64,000 bases of DNA, taken from Octopus vulgaris (lineage: Eukaryota). This document shows, piece by piece, positions 2,134 to 54,699 of this stretch. A program made the translations under genes and the position numbers. The notes under the pieces are model-generated. The model made no database searches and had not been told where the DNA came from. It saw nothing but the letters and a program-made list of their open reading frames with translations. Location of the stretch: NCBI GenBank assembly GCA_951406725.2, contig OX597816.1, positions 131,502,001 through 131,566,000 of the forward strand, read 5' to 3'. Numbering within the stretch: the first letter of the stretch is position 1; each line of letters opens with the position of its first letter.

Positions 2134-2691
2134 TGCAATGTTATTGCCAGTTTAAATATGCTTGTGGCACATTCAAACTCTTAAGCAGGCCATTCGCTGT
2201 GCTTTGTCACAGAGAAAATTTCTTGCTGTAGACAAATGGTGTAAATACACCTAAATCAACTCACAGCACCACCTATCCAGACTGTGAGATGCAAGCAGTT
2301 CAGAGTAGTTATCTCCTCTTCAGCCACAGAAACTAGAGCGGGGTGCTGCATTTATACACATCATTGCTCAGCACTCCCACCTCGTAATTTTTTTACGGTG
2401 AGCTGCCAATTAGTACTACCAACCATTGTACAATGACTGGAATAGCATAAGAGAGACAATCTCTCTTATCAGTTCACAGTGCACCCATCTGGTTTCTTTG
2501 ACTGAAGTGGAGATAACCACTCTGAAATGCTTGCATCTAACAGTCTGGATAGGTGGTACTGTGAGCTGATTTAGTCATATTTACACCATTTGCTTGCAGT
2601 AAGAAATTTTCTCCATGACAAAGTACAATGAATGGCTTGCTTATGAGTTCAAATGTGCTACTGGCATATTTGAACTGGCAATAACATTGCA
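2134..2691. repeat. Long inverted repeat (about 210-bp arms, about 130-bp spacer), foldback/MITE-like
   Basis: tgcaatgttattgccag (2134) is the reverse complement of ctggcaataacattgca (ending 2691). The arms align throughout, e.g. ccacctatccagactg vs cagtctggataggtgg. Confidence 0.85.
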
Positions 2692-5224: not shown

Positions 5225-5753
5225 TACACATACGTATATATATATAGAGAAAATAGTTAAATTGATATTAATATCCTTGAAAATATATGTTAACACAACT
5301 TTATCAAGGTCGTCCAAAATTAGTGAAATTCAAATTGAACATCTGAAAAATTATCAGTTTATAAATGCTAACAAAAGGAACACCTAAAACAAATTCAGCC
5401 TAAGACATTCCTTCATTTAACTAATGGTGATGTAATTGGATAACGTAAATGTCTTATAAAAATAAAATAAACATATTTAAGAAAAATCATTTTGTATTCA
5501 ACTACTGGTGACATCAATAAAAATAATAAAAATACATTTGGGTACATAATATTGACAAGTCACAAAGATGACAAAACATTAATGTCTACCACTCCTGGAA
5601 TCGGACCTAGCATGTGTTATCTCACTTGTCAGTGGCTTCTAGGTGTTTTTACACTTATTGACAATAAAATTTTCTGCATTTATACACAGCCTGCCCATTA
5701 ACTGGCAATATACATGCCTTGTGTATGTGTGTTGTTTATATATATATACACAT

Positions 5754-6879: not shown

Positions 6880-7175
6880 TCTTTATATATAAAAGAGAAG
6901 TTGTGTGTCTGTCTCCTACGATTTAGATTCCTAACTACTCCCACATTTTGCGGTGCAGTTTAACCAAAACCGGGTATCTTATAGTCGTCATTCATATCGA
7001 GCCCTTCTGGGTATTAGCACGTGTCTACGATGAGTCTACGATTTAAAAAAAATTTACCATAATTTTTTTTCCATTTTTAATGCATTTTTTTGCTATTTTT
7101 TGGCTATAACTCTCTAAAAATGCTTATATAATTATTTACCTTACAAACCCAAGCAACGCCGGGCTATACTGCTAG
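6880..7175 (+). mobile_element. Non-autonomous Helitron
   Basis: Starts A|TC (tctttatatataaaa) and ends CTAG|T. A subterminal GC-rich hairpin cccaagcaacgccggg lies just before the end. No target duplication. Confidence 0.85.
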
Positions 7176-7194
7176 TATATATATATATATATGG

Positions 7195-8117
7195 CCTGAG
7201 ACTATAGTTGTGAGAATAAGATTAGGCTGGTCAAAGTTCAGAGAGCTCCTACCTCTGCTCTCAGAGTGAAAGGCATATTGTATGATGCCTGTGTGCAAAA
7301 AGCTATGCTACATGGCAGTGAAACATGGGCTGTGACAGCTGAGGACATGTGTAGGCTTGAAAGAAATGAAGCTAGTATGCTTTGCTGGATGTGCAATGTC
7401 AGTGTGCATGTTCGATAGTGTAAGCATCTTGAGAGAAAAGTTGGGCATAAGAGGCATCAGATGTGGTGTGCAAGAGAGATGACTGCACTGGTATGGTCAT
7501 GTGAGGCATATGGATGAGGACAGTTGTGTAAAGAAGTGCCAATCTCTAACTGTGGAGGGAACCTGTAAAAGAGGTAGACGCAGGAAGACATAGGATGAGG
7601 TGGTGAATCATGAGCTTTGAAATTTGGGCCCCCTAGAGGCAATGACTAGTGACCAAGACCTTTGGTGATATGCTGTGCTCGAGAAGACCCATCAAGCCAA
7701 ATGAAATTGAAGTCGTGGCTGATGCTGGTGTCATGTAACTGGTATCTGTGCTGGTGGCATGTAAAAAGCACCTTTTGAGCATTGGGTCTCATGGAGGCAA
7801 AGCGGCTGAGCTCCTTTTGAGTGTTGTGCAATGATTGAGGCCTTTGGCATAATGTTGTGCTTGAGAAGACCATTCAAGCCAAGTAAAATTACGGTTGTGA
7901 CAGATAATAATGTCATGCAAATGGCACCCATGCTGGTGGCATGTAAAAGCACGCATTACATTCTGTTAAGCGGTTGGCATTAGGAAGGACATCCAACCAT
8001 AGAATCCATGCCAAATCAGGCAGGGGTCTGGTGCAGCCTTCTAGCTTGCCAGCTCTGATCAAACTATCCAACCCATGTCAGCATAGACAACAGACGTTAA
8101 ATGATGATGATGATGAT
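7195..8117 (+). mobile_element. 5'-truncated RTE-clade LINE (ORF C-terminus plus 3' UTR, (GAT)n tail)
   Basis: Translates to RLGWSKFRELLPLL..RVKGILYDACVQKAMLHGSETWAVTAEDMCRLERNEASML and LHWYGHV...VEGTCKRGRRRKT, with stops and frameshifts. Ends gacgttaaatgatgatgat. Confidence 0.9.
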
Positions 8118-17099: not shown

Positions 17100-17580
17100 G
17101 CTTATTTATTCACATTCTTTTGAATTAATCATTCATTATTTTGTGGCGTGTGATTATTTATTTTTAGAATGACACTGTAGGGTAAGTGTGGGAGGCTGGA
17201 TATGACCAGTTTGGACATAAAATGAACAGAATATTTATTCACATTCTTTGGAATTGATCATTGATTATCTTGTGGCTTGAGATTTTGATGATGTAGTTGT
17301 TTATTTTTAGAATGACATTATAGGGTAAGTATGAAAGGCTGGATATGGTCAGGTTAAACATAAAATGAACAGAATATTTATTCACATTCTTTATTCACGT
17401 ACTTTTGTATTGATCATTCATTATCTTGTGGCTTTGTGACTTCGATGATGTGAATGTTTATTTTTAGAATGACATTGTAGGGTAAGTATGAAGGGCTGGA
17501 TATGGCCAGTTTGAACATAAAATGAACAGAATATTTATTCACATCCTTTTGAATTAATCATTTAAATACCAAAGGGTTAA
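17100..17580. repeat. About 3.5 tandem ~130-bp copies of a piggyBac-like MITE interior, ending at an aagggttaa terminus
   Basis: The unit atttattcacattc...tttttagaatgacattgtagggtaag...acataaaatgaacagaat repeats. The same family is at 24811-25030 and 60629-61276. Confidence 0.75.
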
Positions 17581-19509
17581 ATCTGATCATTTTTTTTCAA
17601 GTCCACAGAGAAATAGTTAAGTTTGCCCTGTTTATATATCTACTGCATAGGTAGCATATATTAAATCATACCTTGATACTGTGTGGACTGAGATCCCCAT
17701 TGACAGGCTGCTGGTGTTAAATAAAGTGTTAACCACTAATGGTATATGCAAATTAGTAGCTGCAGTTCTCTGTTGCTAATGTATTTGTTGAATATATAAA
17801 CAGATTGGTTGATTTTTTTTCTGGGATTGATCAAATTGATGTACACACCGCTGATGAGAACCTAATGAAATTTGAAAGTCAATTAAGGCTGTTCATTTTT
17901 TTTTTTCAGTCTACAGAGAAATAGCTCAAAATTGCCCTATTTATGTATCTACTGCATTAGTTACTTAACATTCCAAATTATAGCCAAATAATCATTCCTT
18001 TAGGTGTGGTCAAAGTAAAAAATCCTTAACTTGCCCATCAAACTGTGACATCCAATCTGCACACCAATTGACTAAAATATCTTGTTGAAAAAAGTGGGAT
18101 GAATGCTAACCAAATTGGCACATTCACCAAACCATGGCATCTAAGCCACATACTGATTGGTCAAAATACAATTAGGACTTAGTTGGTGTGCTCACCAAAC
18201 TGTGACATCTAAGCCACATACTGATTAGTCAAAATACAGTTCATAAGATTCAGCCTGCTGGAGCCCATCAGAAGGTATTTAAAGGACAAATTTAACCATT
18301 TCACTGCAGGTGTCAATTGTGGAACACAACTGTCACTACATAAGCCTCGAAAGTACAAGTTTATTTCAATATTGTAAAATTGTAAAAATTGTAAATAATG
18401 AAATGTGAAAATCAATCTAAGTTGGAATTTCATTGATTAATATATTTAAATATATACACACATATGAATACACACATATGATCAATTCCCCTTCCTGAGG
18501 TACTCCTACATCTTTTATCTTACCCCTCTCCTTACTGGTATTCCCCTTGAACCACATCTCCACCCTTGTTCATCACTCACTATATTCACCTCTTTAGCCA
18601 TCTGTTACTCCCCCTTATCCTTTTATGAAAATATCTACTCTCATTTCCTCCCATGACCCACCGTATGTATCTTCTCTTATGCTCACCTTCTTGTACCTTG
18701 AGCATTTGCTTTAACACTCTATCACTACTTTCCTTTATTTCTTTCAGCCATGTATCTGCTCTACAACAAGACACCTGTGCTTGGCCCTCTATCTTACTTT
18801 AGCCATTTAACATTTGGCATAAAGTCAGCCACCTCTACCTTCCTTCTCAAGTACTCTCCACTTTGTGATGAGAGTTTTTACTTTTTCCCTGTCCTCTTAT
18901 TATCTTGTAAGTTTACACAGCAATCTCACAGATGTTGGTGGCACTAAAAAAGCACCAAATACACTCTGTAAAGTGGCTGGCATTAGGAATGATATCAAAG
19001 CTGTCATTGGAGCTTGACACAGCCTTGCAGCTTGCTAGATCCTGTTAAACTTTCTAACTCATGCCAGCATGGAAAACAGATGTTAAATAATGATGATGAG
19101 GATGAGGAGGATATATATATATGGTGGGTTACTCTAGCACTACACATAACATGTAGCCTGGTACAATCTATTGTATGGTAGAGTTGTCAGCAACTAAACT
19201 GCCAATCCCACCAAGCTTGCTTGGTGAGGAGGGTGACTTTTGGTCATGCTGTGTGACGAAAGACAACACCTGTCAAAGGGCAGAGGAACTCAGGAAAGTC
19301 AATGACCTTCCAATATAGTCAAAGGTAAATGGTCTTCACTAGTAGTGAAGACAATCCATCTAAGAGATGGACTTGCAACTAGCTGACATTATTTTTGCAC
19401 TGAAAAATTATGACATGAAGATGTTATATATTCATCTATGGACAACTGATAATAATGCAATAATAAAAAATTACATACACACACAGACACACACACACAT
19501 ACATATAAT

Positions 19510-19599
<90 letters not shown>

Positions 19600-19604
19600 C
19601 TCCC

Positions 19605-20813
19605 TTAAGTATTTCCCATAGATAATGGCTAGAACTAGAAATATCATTGGTTGGGAATCCAACAGGGGGCGACACTAGACAGATATGGGGTTTTTACACC
19701 TTTTTAGTGTGGTGTTGTCATAACTCTAGTAGTAGGTTTCTTTTACCACAAACCATAGTGTGTAGTTGCGACTGTTACTAAATGTTAACATGATTACAGG
19801 GCTTGGAATAATGAAAGAGCCATTCTTACACTTCACAAAAAATTGAATGTAATCAAGAACAGATACGCGTTCACCAACAATATGCTTCGTGTGAAGCTGT
19901 GCACAAATGGGAAAGTTACATACAGTTTAGCCTTGTCATGCTCTGTGTTGAAGGGAATATAATAGAAAATGTATGAAAGAATTTTGTACCACAATTGGTT
20001 TGCTAGTAGCATAAGATTAATTCATATGCATGTTGTGTAGTATAAAAAGGCTTGCCGTGCATGGTTGCTGCTGGAAGTCATTTCTTTGGCTTAGGCCACG
20101 TAGACAAACTTAGCTTCTCTCCACAATGACAATGTGTCCAGGTCAGAGTTTGGTGAAGAAGAGGACGGAACAAATTTCTTGTTTAATAGATAGCTTCAAA
20201 GACTGCTGACTCCCCCTGGTAACTGAAAAGCTTCCAGAGCCTTCCATGACTCAGCGGTGTTACTGAAAGGGACATAAATCTGCTATTCAGGGAAATTTTC
20301 AAGAATATTCACCAAGGGAGGTCATTGTGGTTGGATCCCCAACTTCCAGCAAACAATAAATAATATAATGACAGAATCTATTTCAATCTATGTCACACCT
20401 ACACCTTTTTACCATAAGAGAGAAATTTTGCCCCATGGTAACTGCAGTGAATTTGCCTTTTAGCAGTTGAAATATGTGACAAACATATTTCAACTAACCT
20501 AAAGTTTACTTATGCCTAAACGCTGCTTGGCATCAGTGGTCTACTGGTGCAAATCAATATTGTTGACTGCATTTTAGTTAAAGCCATGGCTTTCATAAAG
20601 TCTGTCCAGAGTTGCCTCTCTTAGGTATTTCCCATTGATAATGGCTAAAGAGCTAGAAACATTGATGTATGGGAATCTGACAGTGGACAACACTGGACAG
20701 ACATGGTGTTTTTACATCTAAATACTATAAGAAAGAATTTTCCCCCATAGTAACTGCAGTGAATTTGTCTTTTAGCAGTTGAAACATGTCACAAACATAT
20801 TTCAACTATCCTA
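19605..20813. mobile_element. Unclassified ~900-bp element followed by an internally deleted ~190-bp copy
   Basis: 19605-19700 matches 20622-20720, and 20411-20500 matches 20725-20813. A 13-bp subterminal hairpin agttgaaatatgt-gacaa-acatatttcaact is present. Confidence 0.6.
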
Positions 20814-20870: not shown

Positions 20871-21428
20871 TATATAAAAATACAAAATGGAACAAGAATG
20901 CAAAACATCCAGACAGTTAGGTGATACAAAAAGGGACAACAAAACATCCAGATAGACGATACGAAGAAAACAAGGACAGATCATTCAGAGTTTTCTTTCC
21001 TCAGTCGAGTTCCAGATTATCTTTGCAATTTCAGCTGGTTATACTCGAGATTGCTCCAATCTGGCCAGTCCCAAGGAAAAACTAAGCTAAGAGCATTATA
21101 TTCCTTGGAAGAAAGCAGTGAATGTATACGAAAACAAGGGCAGAAAAAAAACGAGTCCTTGCTTTTGTATACATTCACTGCTTTCTTCCAAGGAATCTAA
21201 TGCTCTTAGCTTAGTTTTTCCTTGGGACTGGCCAGATTGGAGCAATCTCGAGTATAACCAGCTGAAATTGCAAAGATAATCTGGAACTCGACTGAAGAAA
21301 GGAAACTCTGAATGACCCGTCCTTGTTTTCTTTGTATCGTCTATCTGGATGTTTTGTTGTCCCTTTTTTGTATCACCTAGCTGTCAGGATGCTTTCTGTT
21401 CTTGTCCCATTTTGTATTTTATAAATAT
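20871..21428. repeat. Near-perfect palindrome (about 265-bp arms, 17-nt spacer) between (TA)n tracts
   Basis: For example cagctggttatactcgagattgctccaatctggccagtcccaaggaaaaactaagctaagagcatt is the exact reverse complement of the right arm. The centre is at 21140-21156. Confidence 0.95.
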
Positions 21429-32192: not shown

Positions 32193-33900
32193 CACTACCG
32201 TCAGAAATTAATTAGCACCCTTGATTTGCTCTTCACTCAAGGTATTTGCTGTCACCTAGTGGCCATATCTCGAACTATTGCTTTGTTGCGAGTTCACTGT
32301 TGCGCAGAACGATGATGTAACTTTGTTTGCAGAGTGGTTTGAGAGTCTACAGCCTAATGATGTTGACATAGCAGTGCAACAACTTGGAGTGCGGATGCAG
32401 ACAAATCTTCCTTTGTTTAATAGATATAGGTAGCGCCTCGCAAGGACCGAAATCACACCGTACTAAGTTTTCTCATCGCGTAAGACGTTTTGAACAGCTC
32501 GTAGGTTAATTGATTTGTGTATTTGCAAGATTTTTTTTCCTCACAAATTCTCCTACACTCTGCTTCGTGACGTCGCTTCCAGTTCACAAAACTTTCTGTT
32601 ATACATCAAATAAAGTGAGAAATTCTGCTTTCTTTCTTTTTTGTTTAATGAATAATAACTCATAGCAGTTTTGTTATAGCATAACATTATTCAAATGAAT
32701 AGTTTTAATGAAAATAACTGGTTTTTATCGTTCATTCCTAGATGGGCCCAAGACCTCGCATGACCTTGGAGAGACGGTACGAGGCTCTCTCGTGGCGTGG
32801 GAAGCTGTCGGAGGCTGCAATAGCCAGAAAACTTGGTGTAGCCAGGCGCACAATTCAGTGCTTATTTAAGAAATACGAGGAAACCGGATCAGCAGCTGAC
32901 AAAAAGGGTAGGGGATGGAAGAGGCTGACGCCCCAGCGGGAGGACCGGATGCTGATCCGAAAGTCACTGTACAACCGAAGGGCAACGAGCCGGCAACTGG
33001 CAGAGGAGATGCAAAAGATGACAGGGAAGCAGTTGTCTACAACCACTGTCAAGACCAGATTACTGGAAGCTGGTCTAAAATCCTGTAGGGCTGCCCGTAA
33101 GCTGCTCCTTACAGCCCAAAACCGGAAGAGGCGGCTGCTCTGGGCCCGTGCCCACAAGACATGGACCGTGCAGCAGTGGTGGACAGTGATGTTCACTGAC
33201 GAGTCGCGATTCAGTCTCGTCAGTGACAAGCCTGTCCATGTGCGACGCCGCAAGGGTGAGCGCTTCAACAAAGACTGCATTGCTCCCACCATGAAGCATG
33301 GTGGGGGTGGTCTGATGGTGTGAGGGGCGTTCAGCTACAGTGGTGTTGGGCGGCTCTATGCCGTCGAAGGCAACATCAATGCAGCAAAGTACGTTGAGAT
33401 AGTATGGGATACCTCTTTGGTGGCGAGGAGTACGTGCTCCAGCAGGACAACGCGCCTTCCCACACAGCCAAGCTCACAACCGGTTTCTTCAAGGACCATG
33501 GGGTGACGGTCATGGACTGGCCTGGCCAGTCACCTGACCTGAACCCTATTGAGAACCTCTGGAGTCGATTGGGTAGGGATTTGAATGTGCAGCAATACAG
33601 GAACCGACACGAGCTGTTTGGGGCACTTCTTGCAGCATGGAGGGCCATCCCTGCACAGTACCTGCAGGCACTCATAGACAGCATGCCGACCCGCGTAGCA
33701 GCTGTCATTGCTGCCAAAGGAGGAGCAACAAGATATTGACTAAATTTCATGATTAATAACAATTATGTGGTGTGCTGGGATATGTTTTAATAAATTTTTG
33801 ATTAAAAACGAGTTCGTTTCTTATAATAAGTTAATTAAATTAAGAAAATGTAAGAAAATGTAGAAATTTGAGAAGTGCTAATTAATTTCCGACGCAAGTG
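32193..33900 (+). mobile_element. Near-complete Tc1 transposon (DD34E), 1708 bp
   Basis: TA|cactaccgtcagaaattaattagcac ... gtgctaattaatttccgacgcaagtg|TA gives 26-bp TIRs with 3 mismatches and a TA duplication. Confidence 0.95.
32742..33739 (+). pseudogene. Tc1 transposase, disrupted by one stop (33321-33323) and a frameshift near 33400
   Basis: HTH N-terminus, then VMFTDESRF, KHGGGGLMV*G, LQQDNAPSH and WPGQSPDLNPIEN. There are 34 residues between the second D and the E. Confidence 0.95.
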
Positions 33901-50868: not shown

Positions 50869-50930
<62 letters not shown>

Positions 50931-51041
50931 GTAAGGAAGTGTAACCAGCCATATAAACCAAACCAAATCAGACTAGATCCTGGTGCAGCTTCCCAGCTTC
51001 CTGGCTCTGCTCAAACTGTTACACATAAACACAAATATATA

Positions 51042-51918
51042 CAGGGTGCAATGGGTAAATTATCACCATTCTATATTTTTAATTTCACACATTGTTTGTT
51101 TTTGATTTTGTTGACAACAAAGAAAAGTAGGGTCAGTTGAGCACCATCTGTGAGAAAAACAGCACCATGACACAATTCACTCTGCCAGAAATTTGGGAAC
51201 GACATGCACTGCTTGGCATTCACACCAGAAGCTCCAATATGAACATTTCAGAGTGTTTGCATGTCAATTTGAGGACTGTGCAATTTGAGGACATGTACCA
51301 AGAATGATAAAAATCAAACATCCAATCAACATCATGATGTTTGGAGTGATCACTAGTGATAGTGATGTTATGCCTCCATTCATCTTCTCACACGCCTTCA
51401 GATTTTACAGAGGCCTTCATCAAGTGCCTGGAGGAGGTAGTGCTGCCTTGGGTCAAGAGGGTGGCTACTGGAAGGCCCCATGACTAACAACAGGATTCTG
51501 AACCATGTCACACAAGCAGGAGAACCCAGTCATGACTGTCAGACAATTTCTGCGACCACATCACCCTTAACATCTGGTCACCTAACTCCCCACACTGCAA
51601 CCTCTTTGATTATTATGTGTGGGATGCAGTTGAGCAAGAGACCAGCAAAACTCCTTATAACATCAAAGATGAACTGAAGGCAAGAATTATGGCAGCATCC
51701 ATCAACTTAAATAAGGAGACCATCCAGAAGAGTTGTAGGAGATTCCAAAGTCATCTGGAGGCCGTGTTTGAAGCCACTTGCAATTTTTTTGAATAAATTT
51801 ATTCTTTAGTATTTCAAGATATTTTTATTTAATTTTGGTAAATATATCTGTCACAATAAGATGTCAGCGTTATTTTATTTTTGCTTAATTTAGGCAACAG
51901 TTTATTCACCTCACCCTG
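51042..51918 (+). mobile_element. Second DD37D/maT copy, internally deleted
   Basis: ta|cagggtgca...tcaccctg|ta. Colinear with 13890-14747 but with a different internal deletion. Confidence 0.9.
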
Positions 51919-51924
51919 TATATA

Positions 51925-52250
51925 TATTCTTTTATAGGTTTCAGTCATTTAATTATGACCATGCTGGAGCACTGCCTTGAGGGGTTTTAGTTTAACAAAT
52001 TGATACCAGGACTTATTTTTGTAAGCCTGGTACTTATGAGGATGTCAACACACCAACACCAGTTGCCAAAGACACACACATATACACATATATATACGAT
52101 GGGCTTCTTTCAGTTTCTGTCTGCCAAATCCACTCATAAGGCTTTGGTGGGCCTGAGGTGATAGCAGATGCCTTCAGTGCCATAAAGTGGGCCTGAACCT
52201 GAAAGCATGTAGTTGGGAACAAGCTTCTCACCACACAGCCACTCCTATGC
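51925..52250 (-). mobile_element. SINE family A (partially deleted)
   Basis: Matches the copy at 31048-31455. Confidence 0.8.
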
Positions 52251-52272
52251 CTTTATATATAAATATATACCT

Positions 52273-52332
<60 letters not shown>

Positions 52333-52428
52333 AAAATATAAAGCAAAACCTAACCACATTCTATCCCTTCTAAACTAAATCATGTTTAATTAGTCATTCC
52401 CAACATGTTTGATTATCTCCTTGATTAC

Positions 52429-52474
52429 CGCCCGTTGATAAGAGACAATAATCTCGAAACCGCGGTCCGGTGCG
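52429..52474 (+). ncRNA. Type I hammerhead ribozyme candidate, U3-A8 core variant
   Basis: CGCCCG-UUGAUAA-GAGA caauaa UCUC-GAAA-CCGCGG-UC-CGG(U)GCG. All three stems form. Confidence 0.65.
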
Positions 52475-52627
52475 TATCACTTAGGCTTACAAGAAAGGGA
52501 TGGCCTCCCTTTGCAAATACCTTAAGGGCACAGAAATTGTGTCTAAAGCCAGCTGGAGACGATGATCTCCTGGGGCTAAAAAGCTACAGTAACACCCCCC
52601 CTTTGTGGTTAGCCATATTGAGATGGC

Positions 52628-52812
52628 TATTATACTATACATTGATTATCTCCCTTATACACCCACCACCCACTGACTTGGTCACCTAGGTAGTGGAAGC
52701 TATCAACTACTTCTAGTGTTTCTCCCTGGAACGTGGTAGAAGTTGGTCTCTGCACATTTTCAGTGTTTATTGCTCCTGAGCATCTGCCACAGATAAAAAC
52801 TATTTTCCTAGT
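52628..52812 (-). mobile_element. RTE-clade LINE internal fragment
   Basis: FICGRCSG...GETLEVVDSFHYLGD contains the LEVV..F.YLG motif at the end of the RT domain. Confidence 0.75.
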
Positions 52813-52845
<33 letters not shown>

Positions 52846-52885
52846 GTATATCACAAACAGAGGCACACACACACATACACACACA

Positions 52886-52966
<81 letters not shown>

Positions 52967-54699
52967 GCATATATAAATATATAGATATGCATATATGTAT
53001 GCATATGTATATGTATGTATGAGTGTGTTTAAATTTGTGTCTCCTTGTCTTGGCAGCACATGGCTGTTGTAAATGAATGTTTTTCATTTCTAGTGTTCTG
53101 TGGAAACATACTGCCATGGAAACAAGTAGGAATCAGCATATTAGGTCTGTGATCATCATCATTATCATCACCATCATCGTTCCAATGTCTGCTTTTCCAA
53201 TTTTGCATGGGTTGATGGAATTTCTTCTCTTCTTTTATTGAGGCAGATTTTCTGCAGTTAGATATACATATATACATACATGTATGTGTGTGTGTGTGTG
53301 TGTGCAAAAGTGTATGCAAATATTTCTATAATAATGGCCTAACCTACAATCATGAAACCAATATTACCTAATTGCTTGACTAATTACCATGAAAACTTGA
53401 TGCACAATTCACATCCGCAGACATGTAAAGACTTGTACATACATGTACACATACACGTAATTTTGGTTATGTTTTTCACATCTTATATAAGCTACATTCC
53501 TCTTGATATCACACTTCTGTGAAAGTTTATATGCATTTATATGTTATGCTTTTATGATTTGTGTTTCCTTATAATATAAGCCCTTTGAAGATCGTCATTG
53601 TTAACATCATCATCATCATTATGACCACCACCACCACCACTTCCACTCTTGTCATCATCACTGTCATCATTGTTGTCATGATGATCATCATCTTCATCAC
53701 TAGAAAAATTTGACTTAGTGAGCATATAGATAGATGTACAGGAACTCAGCAACCAAATTGACAGAACAGCAAAGAACCGATCAAAAACTTTTATTTGGAT
53801 CTCCCATCATACATATTGTTACTCCCCTTGTTACCCTGTGAATCTATAATGAGGCTACATTAGATAGATACACTACATATTATATGAAGGGTTGTAGCTA
53901 ACTATTACACATGTACAATGTAATGAATATCAGCTGTAAGAAGTGAAACCTGTTTGTAATTATGTACTTTGCAACATTAAATTATGTATTTTTGCAATTA
54001 TGTGTTATAGAATGTTTAATAATGTATATTGAAATGGTTTAAATGTGAAAATGTACTTTGGTATACATAATCTTGAAATGATTTGATTGAAGTAATGTAT
54101 TTTGGATATAATATGATATTTTGGAATATGTTATAATATATTTTGAAATAATTTGATTTTGATGAATTTGTTTTTGAATATGTATTATTGCATTTTTAAA
54201 TGATTTGATTGGCATAATGTACTTTGGAATTAAAGGCAATATAAATGGAATAGAGTATTTCCTTTTTTTTAAAAATATTATTATTTTTCTCTCTAAAGTG
54301 GCAAAATGGATGAATTGTTAGCATGCCAGATAAAATGCTTAGTGACATTTTGTCCACCTATAGGTTCTGAGCTGAACTTCCACCAAGGTGGACTTTGCTT
54401 TTTATCATTGGCTCATCCAATGTTGATTTGTTCAATTATTGTTTTTGGGATCAATAAAACAAATGTGAGTTGAGTATTGGGATCAAAGCAATTGACTGGT
54501 CCCCTTCACCCAAAATTTCAGGATTTGTGCCTATAGTAAAAGGAATTATTTCTCTCTCTCTCTCTTGCTCTGTCTGTCTGCCTGTCTGTCTACCTGTCTG
54601 CCACTCTGTCTACCTGTCTGTCACTGTCTCTGTCTGTCTGTCTCTGTCACTCTGTCTCTCTTTCTCTGTCTCTCCTTTCTCTGTCACTCTCTGTAGTGC

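Follow-up and report, generated by a model that had tools for sequence, protein, structure and literature searches.

The plus-strand interval 52421-52641 of the window, by which we mean the whole 64-kb stretch of Octopus vulgaris DNA that was analyzed, is probably a solo, truncated copy of a non-coding retroposon of the retrozyme or Penelope pseudo-LTR kind. It carries a complete hammerhead, predicted to cleave, in which the 3-8 pair of the core is U3-A8.

The hammerhead (52421..52482, plus strand) has the canonical type I architecture and was recovered with Rfam, a descriptor, and a covariance model. In the model alignment, the 5′ strand of stem I (52422..52434) comprised distal pairs at 52422-25, a UAC loop at 52426-28, and six proximal base pairs at 52429-34, and its 3′ strand (52468..52479) closed the pairs 52429-34/52468-74, with U52471 bulged, and the distal pairs 52422-25/52476-79. 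The core UUGAUAA (52435..52441) places U3 at 52435 and A8 at 52440 and is followed at 52442..52455 by a 4-bp stem II, GAGA/UCUC (52442-45/52452-55, starting with G10.1-C11.1; pair probabilities 0.85-1.0), capped by the CAAUAA loop 2. The segment 52456..52467 then holds G12-A13-A14 (GAAA being 52456-59), the palindromic stem III (52459-52466), and C17 of the GUC site at 52467. All of the hammerhead core was present (U4, G5, A6, and A9; G12, A13, and A14; A15.1-U16.1; H17), as were three stems with stem I open and the loop 1/loop 2 motifs, and the Watson-Crick 3-8 pair was present at 52435/52440 as U3-A8, not C3-G8. Apart from that pair, the motif conforms to the usual canonical type I hammerhead of animals, and self-cleavage is predicted after C17 (52467), the position given by the hammerhead consensus. 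The initial annotation had described the core, the bulged 6-bp stem I, both other stems, and the GUC site as they are found here, and had overlooked the distal part of stem I, the UAC/U loop, and loop 2, which together make up the tertiary-contact architecture.

A strict descriptor matched the window once, at this motif, and matched none of 500 simulated windows (order-2 Markov, both strands). Our own covariance model, built from 18 metagenome hammerheads that are C3-G8 without exception and whose structure covaries across the set, scored 52421-52481 at 39.8 bits (E 6e-11, the best of 10 matches listed, with E-values that are rough), and all 16 model pairs were standard, with one bulge. The Rfam search at gathering level returned no match across the whole window. 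Under that level, Hammerhead_HH9 (RF02275, clan CL00010) aligned over 77/77 positions, sharing the UUAC loop 1 side and the CAA-AA of loop 2, with 26.6 bits (E 1.5e-4) against a gathering score of 52. Unlike HH9, which is a few-copy conserved ribozyme of amniotes, the motif belongs to a dispersed repeat. Its score under the Rfam gathering level, and folding z-scores that do not mark it out (-1.7 to +0.5, the motif reaching only -1.7), are what a chance look-alike might produce. Such a reading is refuted by the empty simulated windows, by the score under the independent model, and by compensated relatives in the sequencing runs discussed below, and its probability is negligible.

Two 12-bp direct repeats with the same letters, at 52409..52420 and 52642..52653 (plus strand, not extendable), enclose the insert and are likely a target-site duplication. 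The initial annotation had drawn the module as 52330..52625; its first part, 52330-52420, proved to be flank, and the insert proper is a 221-bp non-coding solo insert of 46% GC, made up of the hammerhead with 174 nt behind the cut site. We aligned public contigs from four of 24 listed runs (X1, X2, X9, and X12; three organism labels) to 52340-52800 at 80% likeness. None of the listed runs is registered as RNA, though X12 may be, and the contigs therefore do not bear on expression. In one X1 contig (depth 40.6), the left flank was joined directly to 52642, as at an empty site, although a deletion between the repeats would look alike. Depths in X1 were of the same order in the flanks on the two sides of the insert (1,904 and 2,210), which places the insert inside another, moderately repeated element.

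The insert is short of its family at both ends. Before ~52425 the family continues with other letters, which would extend distal stem I (loose ends, five contigs in X9), and after 52642 it again continues with other letters (loose ends, 39 contigs each in X1 and X2). The family has many copies in several organisms, as judged from contigs of three organism labels, and the ratio of core depth to single-contig depth gives roughly tens to hundreds of copies, summed contig depth not being read as copy number. No second copy of the module lay within the 64-kb window; at the locus no tandem partner was present, and the aligned contigs held no back-joint, though the family extends past both insert ends.

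The window is AT-rich, microsatellite-rich, and full of dispersed repeats, and the make-up of its SINEs and microsatellites looks octopus-like. Another very high-copy repeat, covering 52672-52800 (summed depth to 4 million in X2), starts at 52672, and 52340-52420 together with 52654-52671 look like its lower-copy left part. A Tc1-type transposase fragment is located at 32742-33323 (Pfam HTH_Tnp_Tc3_2 match). Judging by sequence motifs, 51130-51800 appears to be a broken Tc1/mariner-type transposase piece, and 7200-7700 resembles the 3′ end of an RTE-type LINE.

The initial annotation had read the two core changes as covariation rather than decay, with UUGAUAA a candidate for the family consensus. 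The count of core states takes in only contigs that align through the core; contigs diverging inside the ribozyme were clipped, and 623 loose ends stand besides. Of 55 difference rows, the 40 with the best support include none at 52435 or 52440. A8 made up more than 95% of aligned depth in three of the four runs (X1, X2, and X12), in which the A>G tallies (five each) were all assigned to other places, so that G8 lies under 5% of aligned depth there. The unlisted differences comprise one or two T>C places per run and two A>G places in X9, and a minor C3 share is possible. One X12 contig (record 9) kept A8 with a stem III that was two bases shorter yet palindromic. Another X12 contig represents a relative with G8 whose stem II is compensated; it was clipped and is present only as a loose end, and UUGAUAA as the family state therefore applies only to copies that align through the core. 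Taken with this clipped relative, a step up in depth across the cut site (1.7-3.5-fold from the preceding to the following bin) suggests that C3-G8 relatives may be common. Within the aligned depth, stem II was broken at 52452 in 10-14%, and a double change at 52461 and 52464 (matched depth 23-45%) retained the stem III palindrome; these are two CpG transitions, half of whose combinations retain the palindrome, which makes them weak as stem III covariation.

With A8 prevailing in three of the four runs, decay of the 52421 copy alone, that is, a C3-G8 family member hit by two independent transitions, is largely refuted. Moreover, only about 5-7 of the insert's 221 positions depart from the run majority, and two exact complementary changes in this one copy are improbable on that ground. 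Decay does have precedents. A metagenome hammerhead, L081, has both U3-A8 and a broken stem II and belongs to a nine-member cluster that otherwise holds seven C3-G8 and one C3-A8, so decay alone can produce the pair. A decayed hammerhead at 5538-5599, single copy in the window, likewise shows U3-A8, together with four further changes of the G>A type, namely G12>A and, in stem I, three A.C mismatches; because decay may account for its pair too, it was not counted as covariation. We consider such an origin of the 52421 core very improbable. U3-A8 is common to the related copies and to a second repeat family nearby, and these sequences make it likely that the pair at 52421 is an inherited covariation and not damage to a single copy. 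The earlier proposal thus holds in that A8 is inherited and that UUGAUAA is the state of the copies aligning through the core; it is weakened in that decay can yield the same pair and that the G8 relative was clipped out of the count.

A second descriptor returned three intact hammerheads in the window, at 17851 (C3-G8), 20635, and 52435 (both U3-A8), versus one match in 60 simulated windows. The parallel U3-A8 motif (20621-20682, core 20635-41, GUA site) is in a 313-bp partial tandem at 20400..20813 on the plus strand. As the initial annotation held in calling the 52421 module a second, unrelated one, the two have no alignable flank in common; nor did the hammerhead modules elsewhere in the window align with it beyond shuffled controls. 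A weakness of the 20635 hammerhead is that its stem II begins with U-A, not G-C. The repeated parts of 20400-20813 are 87% alike, and the module, whose end is a TA microsatellite, resembles a retrozyme insertion of 1.3 units; directly behind it is a 212-bp inverted repeat (20928-21368, 96% complementary, 17 bases between arms) that is MITE-like or a foldback. A decayed, 80% identical copy of the 20635 hammerhead was found at 19599..19701 (plus strand, core 19619-25), with position 4 changed and U3 and A8 retained. Homologous to the same family (63-67% downstream) is an inverted pair with 215-bp arms at 2134..2691 (2134-2348/2477-2691), each arm of which has a hammerhead remnant with a C3-G8 core (2323-2317 minus, 2502-2508 plus) and a recomposed stem I. 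Among the 20635-family homologues, the switch to C3-G8 was accompanied by paired changes in stem I. The C3-G8 hammerhead at 17851, described as decayed, sits in a ~308-bp partial tandem at 17577-17982, and in both partial tandems (313 and ~308 bp) the repeated part begins immediately after the cut site.

The 3′ body of the 52421 family (52483..52641, plus strand) is very high-copy. Depth at 52596-52611 was 68-239 times core depth, and only about 0.4-1.5% of 3′ depth reached the hammerhead core. A climb of this size is expected from 5′ truncation together with cutting at 52467, but also from a 3′ part shared with a commoner repeat. The segment 52577-52642 is present also in another context, which runs into a Helitron-like end, and the continuation past 52642 matches 7112-7131 with one mismatch in 20 (0.02 expected by chance). 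The latter positions lie in a short element (~6880-7175) whose ends look Helitron-like from their marks, namely a TC start after A, a weak 3′ hairpin, and CTAG followed by T. The 3′ body of the family is thus common to a Helitron-like family or was captured by one. In two X12 contigs, telomere-type TTAGGG repeats adjoin the 3′ body before 52498.

Helitrons have a 5′ TC, a 3′ hairpin and CTRR, and an A|T target, and make no duplication. None of these traits was present in 52421-52641, which has its 12-bp duplication, and an RNA route is therefore favored for the insert. The Helitron link bears on a different history, in which a U3-A8 founder, slow or dead as a ribozyme, was multiplied without cleavage; a non-autonomous Helitron might have carried it along, for instance, or a ribozyme-indifferent reverse transcriptase might have copied it. 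This would account for the 39 contigs each in X1 and X2 that run past 52642 into letters matching the Helitron-like element, and for the small share of 3′ depth that gets to the core; a weakly cleaving ribozyme would also be over-represented among inserts spanning the cut site, and L081 exemplifies U3-A8 by decay. However, the insert lacks Helitron ends and is flanked by a duplication, two unrelated families within 64 kb have the same exact compensatory pair in cores that are otherwise intact, and A8 was maintained across two stem III types, with single mismatched states not seen as family states. On these grounds, we regard multiplication as a passive passenger as unlikely.

To place the core in a wider context, we scanned viral and metagenome contigs with a control pattern free at positions 3 and 8, obtaining at least 131 matches in at least 130 loci (7 viral, at least 123 metagenome); the matches are non-independent, 66 belonging to one cluster. 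The 131 matches listed comprised 111 C3-G8, 9 U3-A8, 7 C3-A8, and 4 U3-G8, and 51 of those listed passed an intactness filter (50 C3-G8, one C3-A8, no U3-A8). None of the 52421 family was among the 7 viral and 123 metagenome loci listed for this core-agnostic pattern, patterns specific to the family had no match in viral_contigs, and a canonical U3-A8 pattern gave 29 matches in genome_contigs, none of them intact. Two metagenome hammerheads (L010 and L130) combine a UUAC loop resembling that of HH9 with palindromic stems III of greater length, a style near that of the 52421 motif.

Among the matches listed, UAC stood beside stem I in 29 of 33 distinct intact C3-G8 controls, as it does at 52421, and 30 of the 33 had a palindromic stem III. 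The initial annotation had taken the palindrome as a sign of cleavage in dimers. Dimer function has been argued for weak stems III (accessible text of Cervera 2014, PMC4209133), and a monomeric coral retrozyme hammerhead is described as cleaving at ~0.8/min (accessible text of PMC7229834); with the palindrome so ordinary and a monomer able to cleave, dimer dependence of the 52421 motif does not follow. Its lowest-energy monomer fold is a non-hammerhead hairpin, and the active monomer fold lies 6.2 kcal/mol above it, a gap that matches the median of the 33 C3-G8 controls (range 2.5-10.9). Placing C3-G8 in the 52421 background widened the gap to 8.7 kcal/mol, which, in a folding model without tertiary contacts, hints that U3-A8 eases a competing helix. 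An additive dimer estimate of -34.5 kcal/mol, versus -31.2 kcal/mol for two misfolded monomers, is too crude to weigh.

That U3-A8 is a tolerated natural variant, as the initial annotation had it, agrees with the accessible text of Perreault 2011 (PMC3088659), in which the C3-G8 pair is exchanged compensatorily, as at 52421, and natural U3-A8 in several hammerheads is stated to be active in vitro. Some 1,300 minimal U3-A8 hammerheads, which an earlier descriptor had missed, are tied to Schistosoma Penelope elements in the accessible part of Cervera 2014 (PMC4209133). The U3-A8 variant is therefore already published, and the 52421 family adds a member of retrozyme/Penelope type; CUGANGA searches do miss the 52421 motif, as had been anticipated. 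A 2007 study by Przybilski and Hammann, cited for in vitro U3-A8 activity, reportedly says in its title that tolerance depends on surrounding elements. Published activity of U3-A8 is for that reason not simply transferable to the 52421 motif.

As far as the accessible texts go, animal non-LTR retrozymes (Cervera & de la Pena 2020, PMC7229834; Li, Clavereau & Pollet 2026) share with the 52421 motif a 6-bp stem I, a 4-bp stem II, a short palindromic stem III, and the loop 1/loop 2 motifs. They are short, non-coding, low-GC (<50%), multi-copy repeats with a canonical type I hammerhead and a target-site duplication of more than 4 bp, which is also what we found at 52421-52641 with its 12-bp repeats; solo copies are described there, and the window's sister modules are ~310-bp partial tandems of the same kind. 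Unlike those retrozymes, the insert has a U3-A8 core, is a sub-monomer solo copy known here from sequence only, and has a 3′ part common to a far more abundant, partly Helitron-linked repeat. By analogy in architecture and duplication, the 52421 hammerhead is predicted to work like a retrozyme hammerhead. In the accessible literature, we found no published account of cephalopod retrozymes or of the 52421 sequence, and an earlier listing of them may exist; what is published includes a count of 235 Rfam loci for hammerheads in the giant squid (PMC6962438) and cephalopod Naiad elements without canonical hammerheads (PMC8557442).

The 52421 family also resembles the Penelope-like Cercyon hammerheads of Schistosoma mansoni, as far as these are described in the accessible text (PMC4209133), in its U3-A8 covariation, its retroelement setting, its escape from standard descriptors, and its mostly single motifs. 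In contrast, theirs are minimal and lie in pseudo-LTRs of coding elements, while the 52421 motif is canonical (stem III, both loops) with no adjoining Penelope ORF. The insert might accordingly be viewed as a pseudo-LTR fragment of an autonomous Penelope-like element, its ribozyme processing the tandem precursor RNA of that element, and not as a non-autonomous retrozyme. In the accessible texts, Penelope pseudo-LTRs bear type I hammerheads, some of them U3-A8 (PMC4209133), retrozymes are argued to descend from such pseudo-LTRs (Li et al. 2026, bioRxiv 10.64898/2026.07.22.740005), and Penelope insertion patterns are shown that the inverted pair 2134-2691 resembles (PMC8557442). However, metazoan Penelope hammerheads are mostly minimal, and the 52421 motif is canonical with both loops. 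Furthermore, Pfam gave no match, and neither RT nor GIY-YIG, in 22 frames from 50928-54473 around the 52421 locus, no match in the 99-codon frame 52390-52689, and no RT or GIY-YIG match in the 16 of 29 long window ORFs that were searched. Altogether, origin as a pseudo-LTR fragment of an autonomous element appears improbable.

For a retroposon of the retrozyme or Penelope pseudo-LTR kind, we infer cleavage, re-ligation, an RNA intermediate, and a Penelope partner. Transcripts of a source copy would cut themselves at the GUC site and could be re-ligated. A Penelope-type reverse transcriptase would then prime downstream of the cut site, at a staggered nick in the DNA, and copy back; since the copy contains both sides of the cut site, its template would have been uncut or re-ligated RNA. 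Copying that halted inside distal stem I would leave a 221-bp insert, bounded by 12-bp duplications, within another repeat. Retroposition is supported by the 12-bp repeats, the empty-site-like contig, the 68-239-fold rise in depth beyond the cut site on its 3′ side, and the partial-tandem form of the sister modules. In the window, the aligned contigs, and the frames around the locus, the family showed neither a tandem array nor a full monomer nor a Penelope ORF. The U3-A8 pair would preserve Watson-Crick pairing between positions 3 and 8 and perhaps also weaken the competing helix. Being a lone copy, 52421-52641 would release no circle and form no dimer in cis, and would at most cut a passing plus-strand transcript.

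Because hammerheads in animal repeats and the U3-A8 pair have both been published, the single 52421 motif is modest news. More worth pursuing is how often U3-A8 turns up locally in canonical families independent of one another, the pair being present in two of the three intact motifs in 64 kb, from unrelated families, versus none of the 51 intact control motifs among the matches listed. U3-A8 could be a selected core that prevails in this animal lineage and that its canonical hammerhead retroelements have adopted repeatedly, a proposal that we advance tentatively and hold to be possible but less than probable. If true, the pair swap would have been selected, for example for weakening the competing helix or for slowing cleavage, which would leave uncut or circular RNA to be copied. 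Descriptor counts that start from CUGANGA, as in the methods of PMC8557442, would undercount this lineage, and, if the proposal is true, such searches would have missed a large share of its active retrozyme fauna. Homologous U3-A8 and C3-G8 families also coexist in one genome and offer a natural pair in which exchange at positions 3 and 8 may be set against cleavage and copy success.
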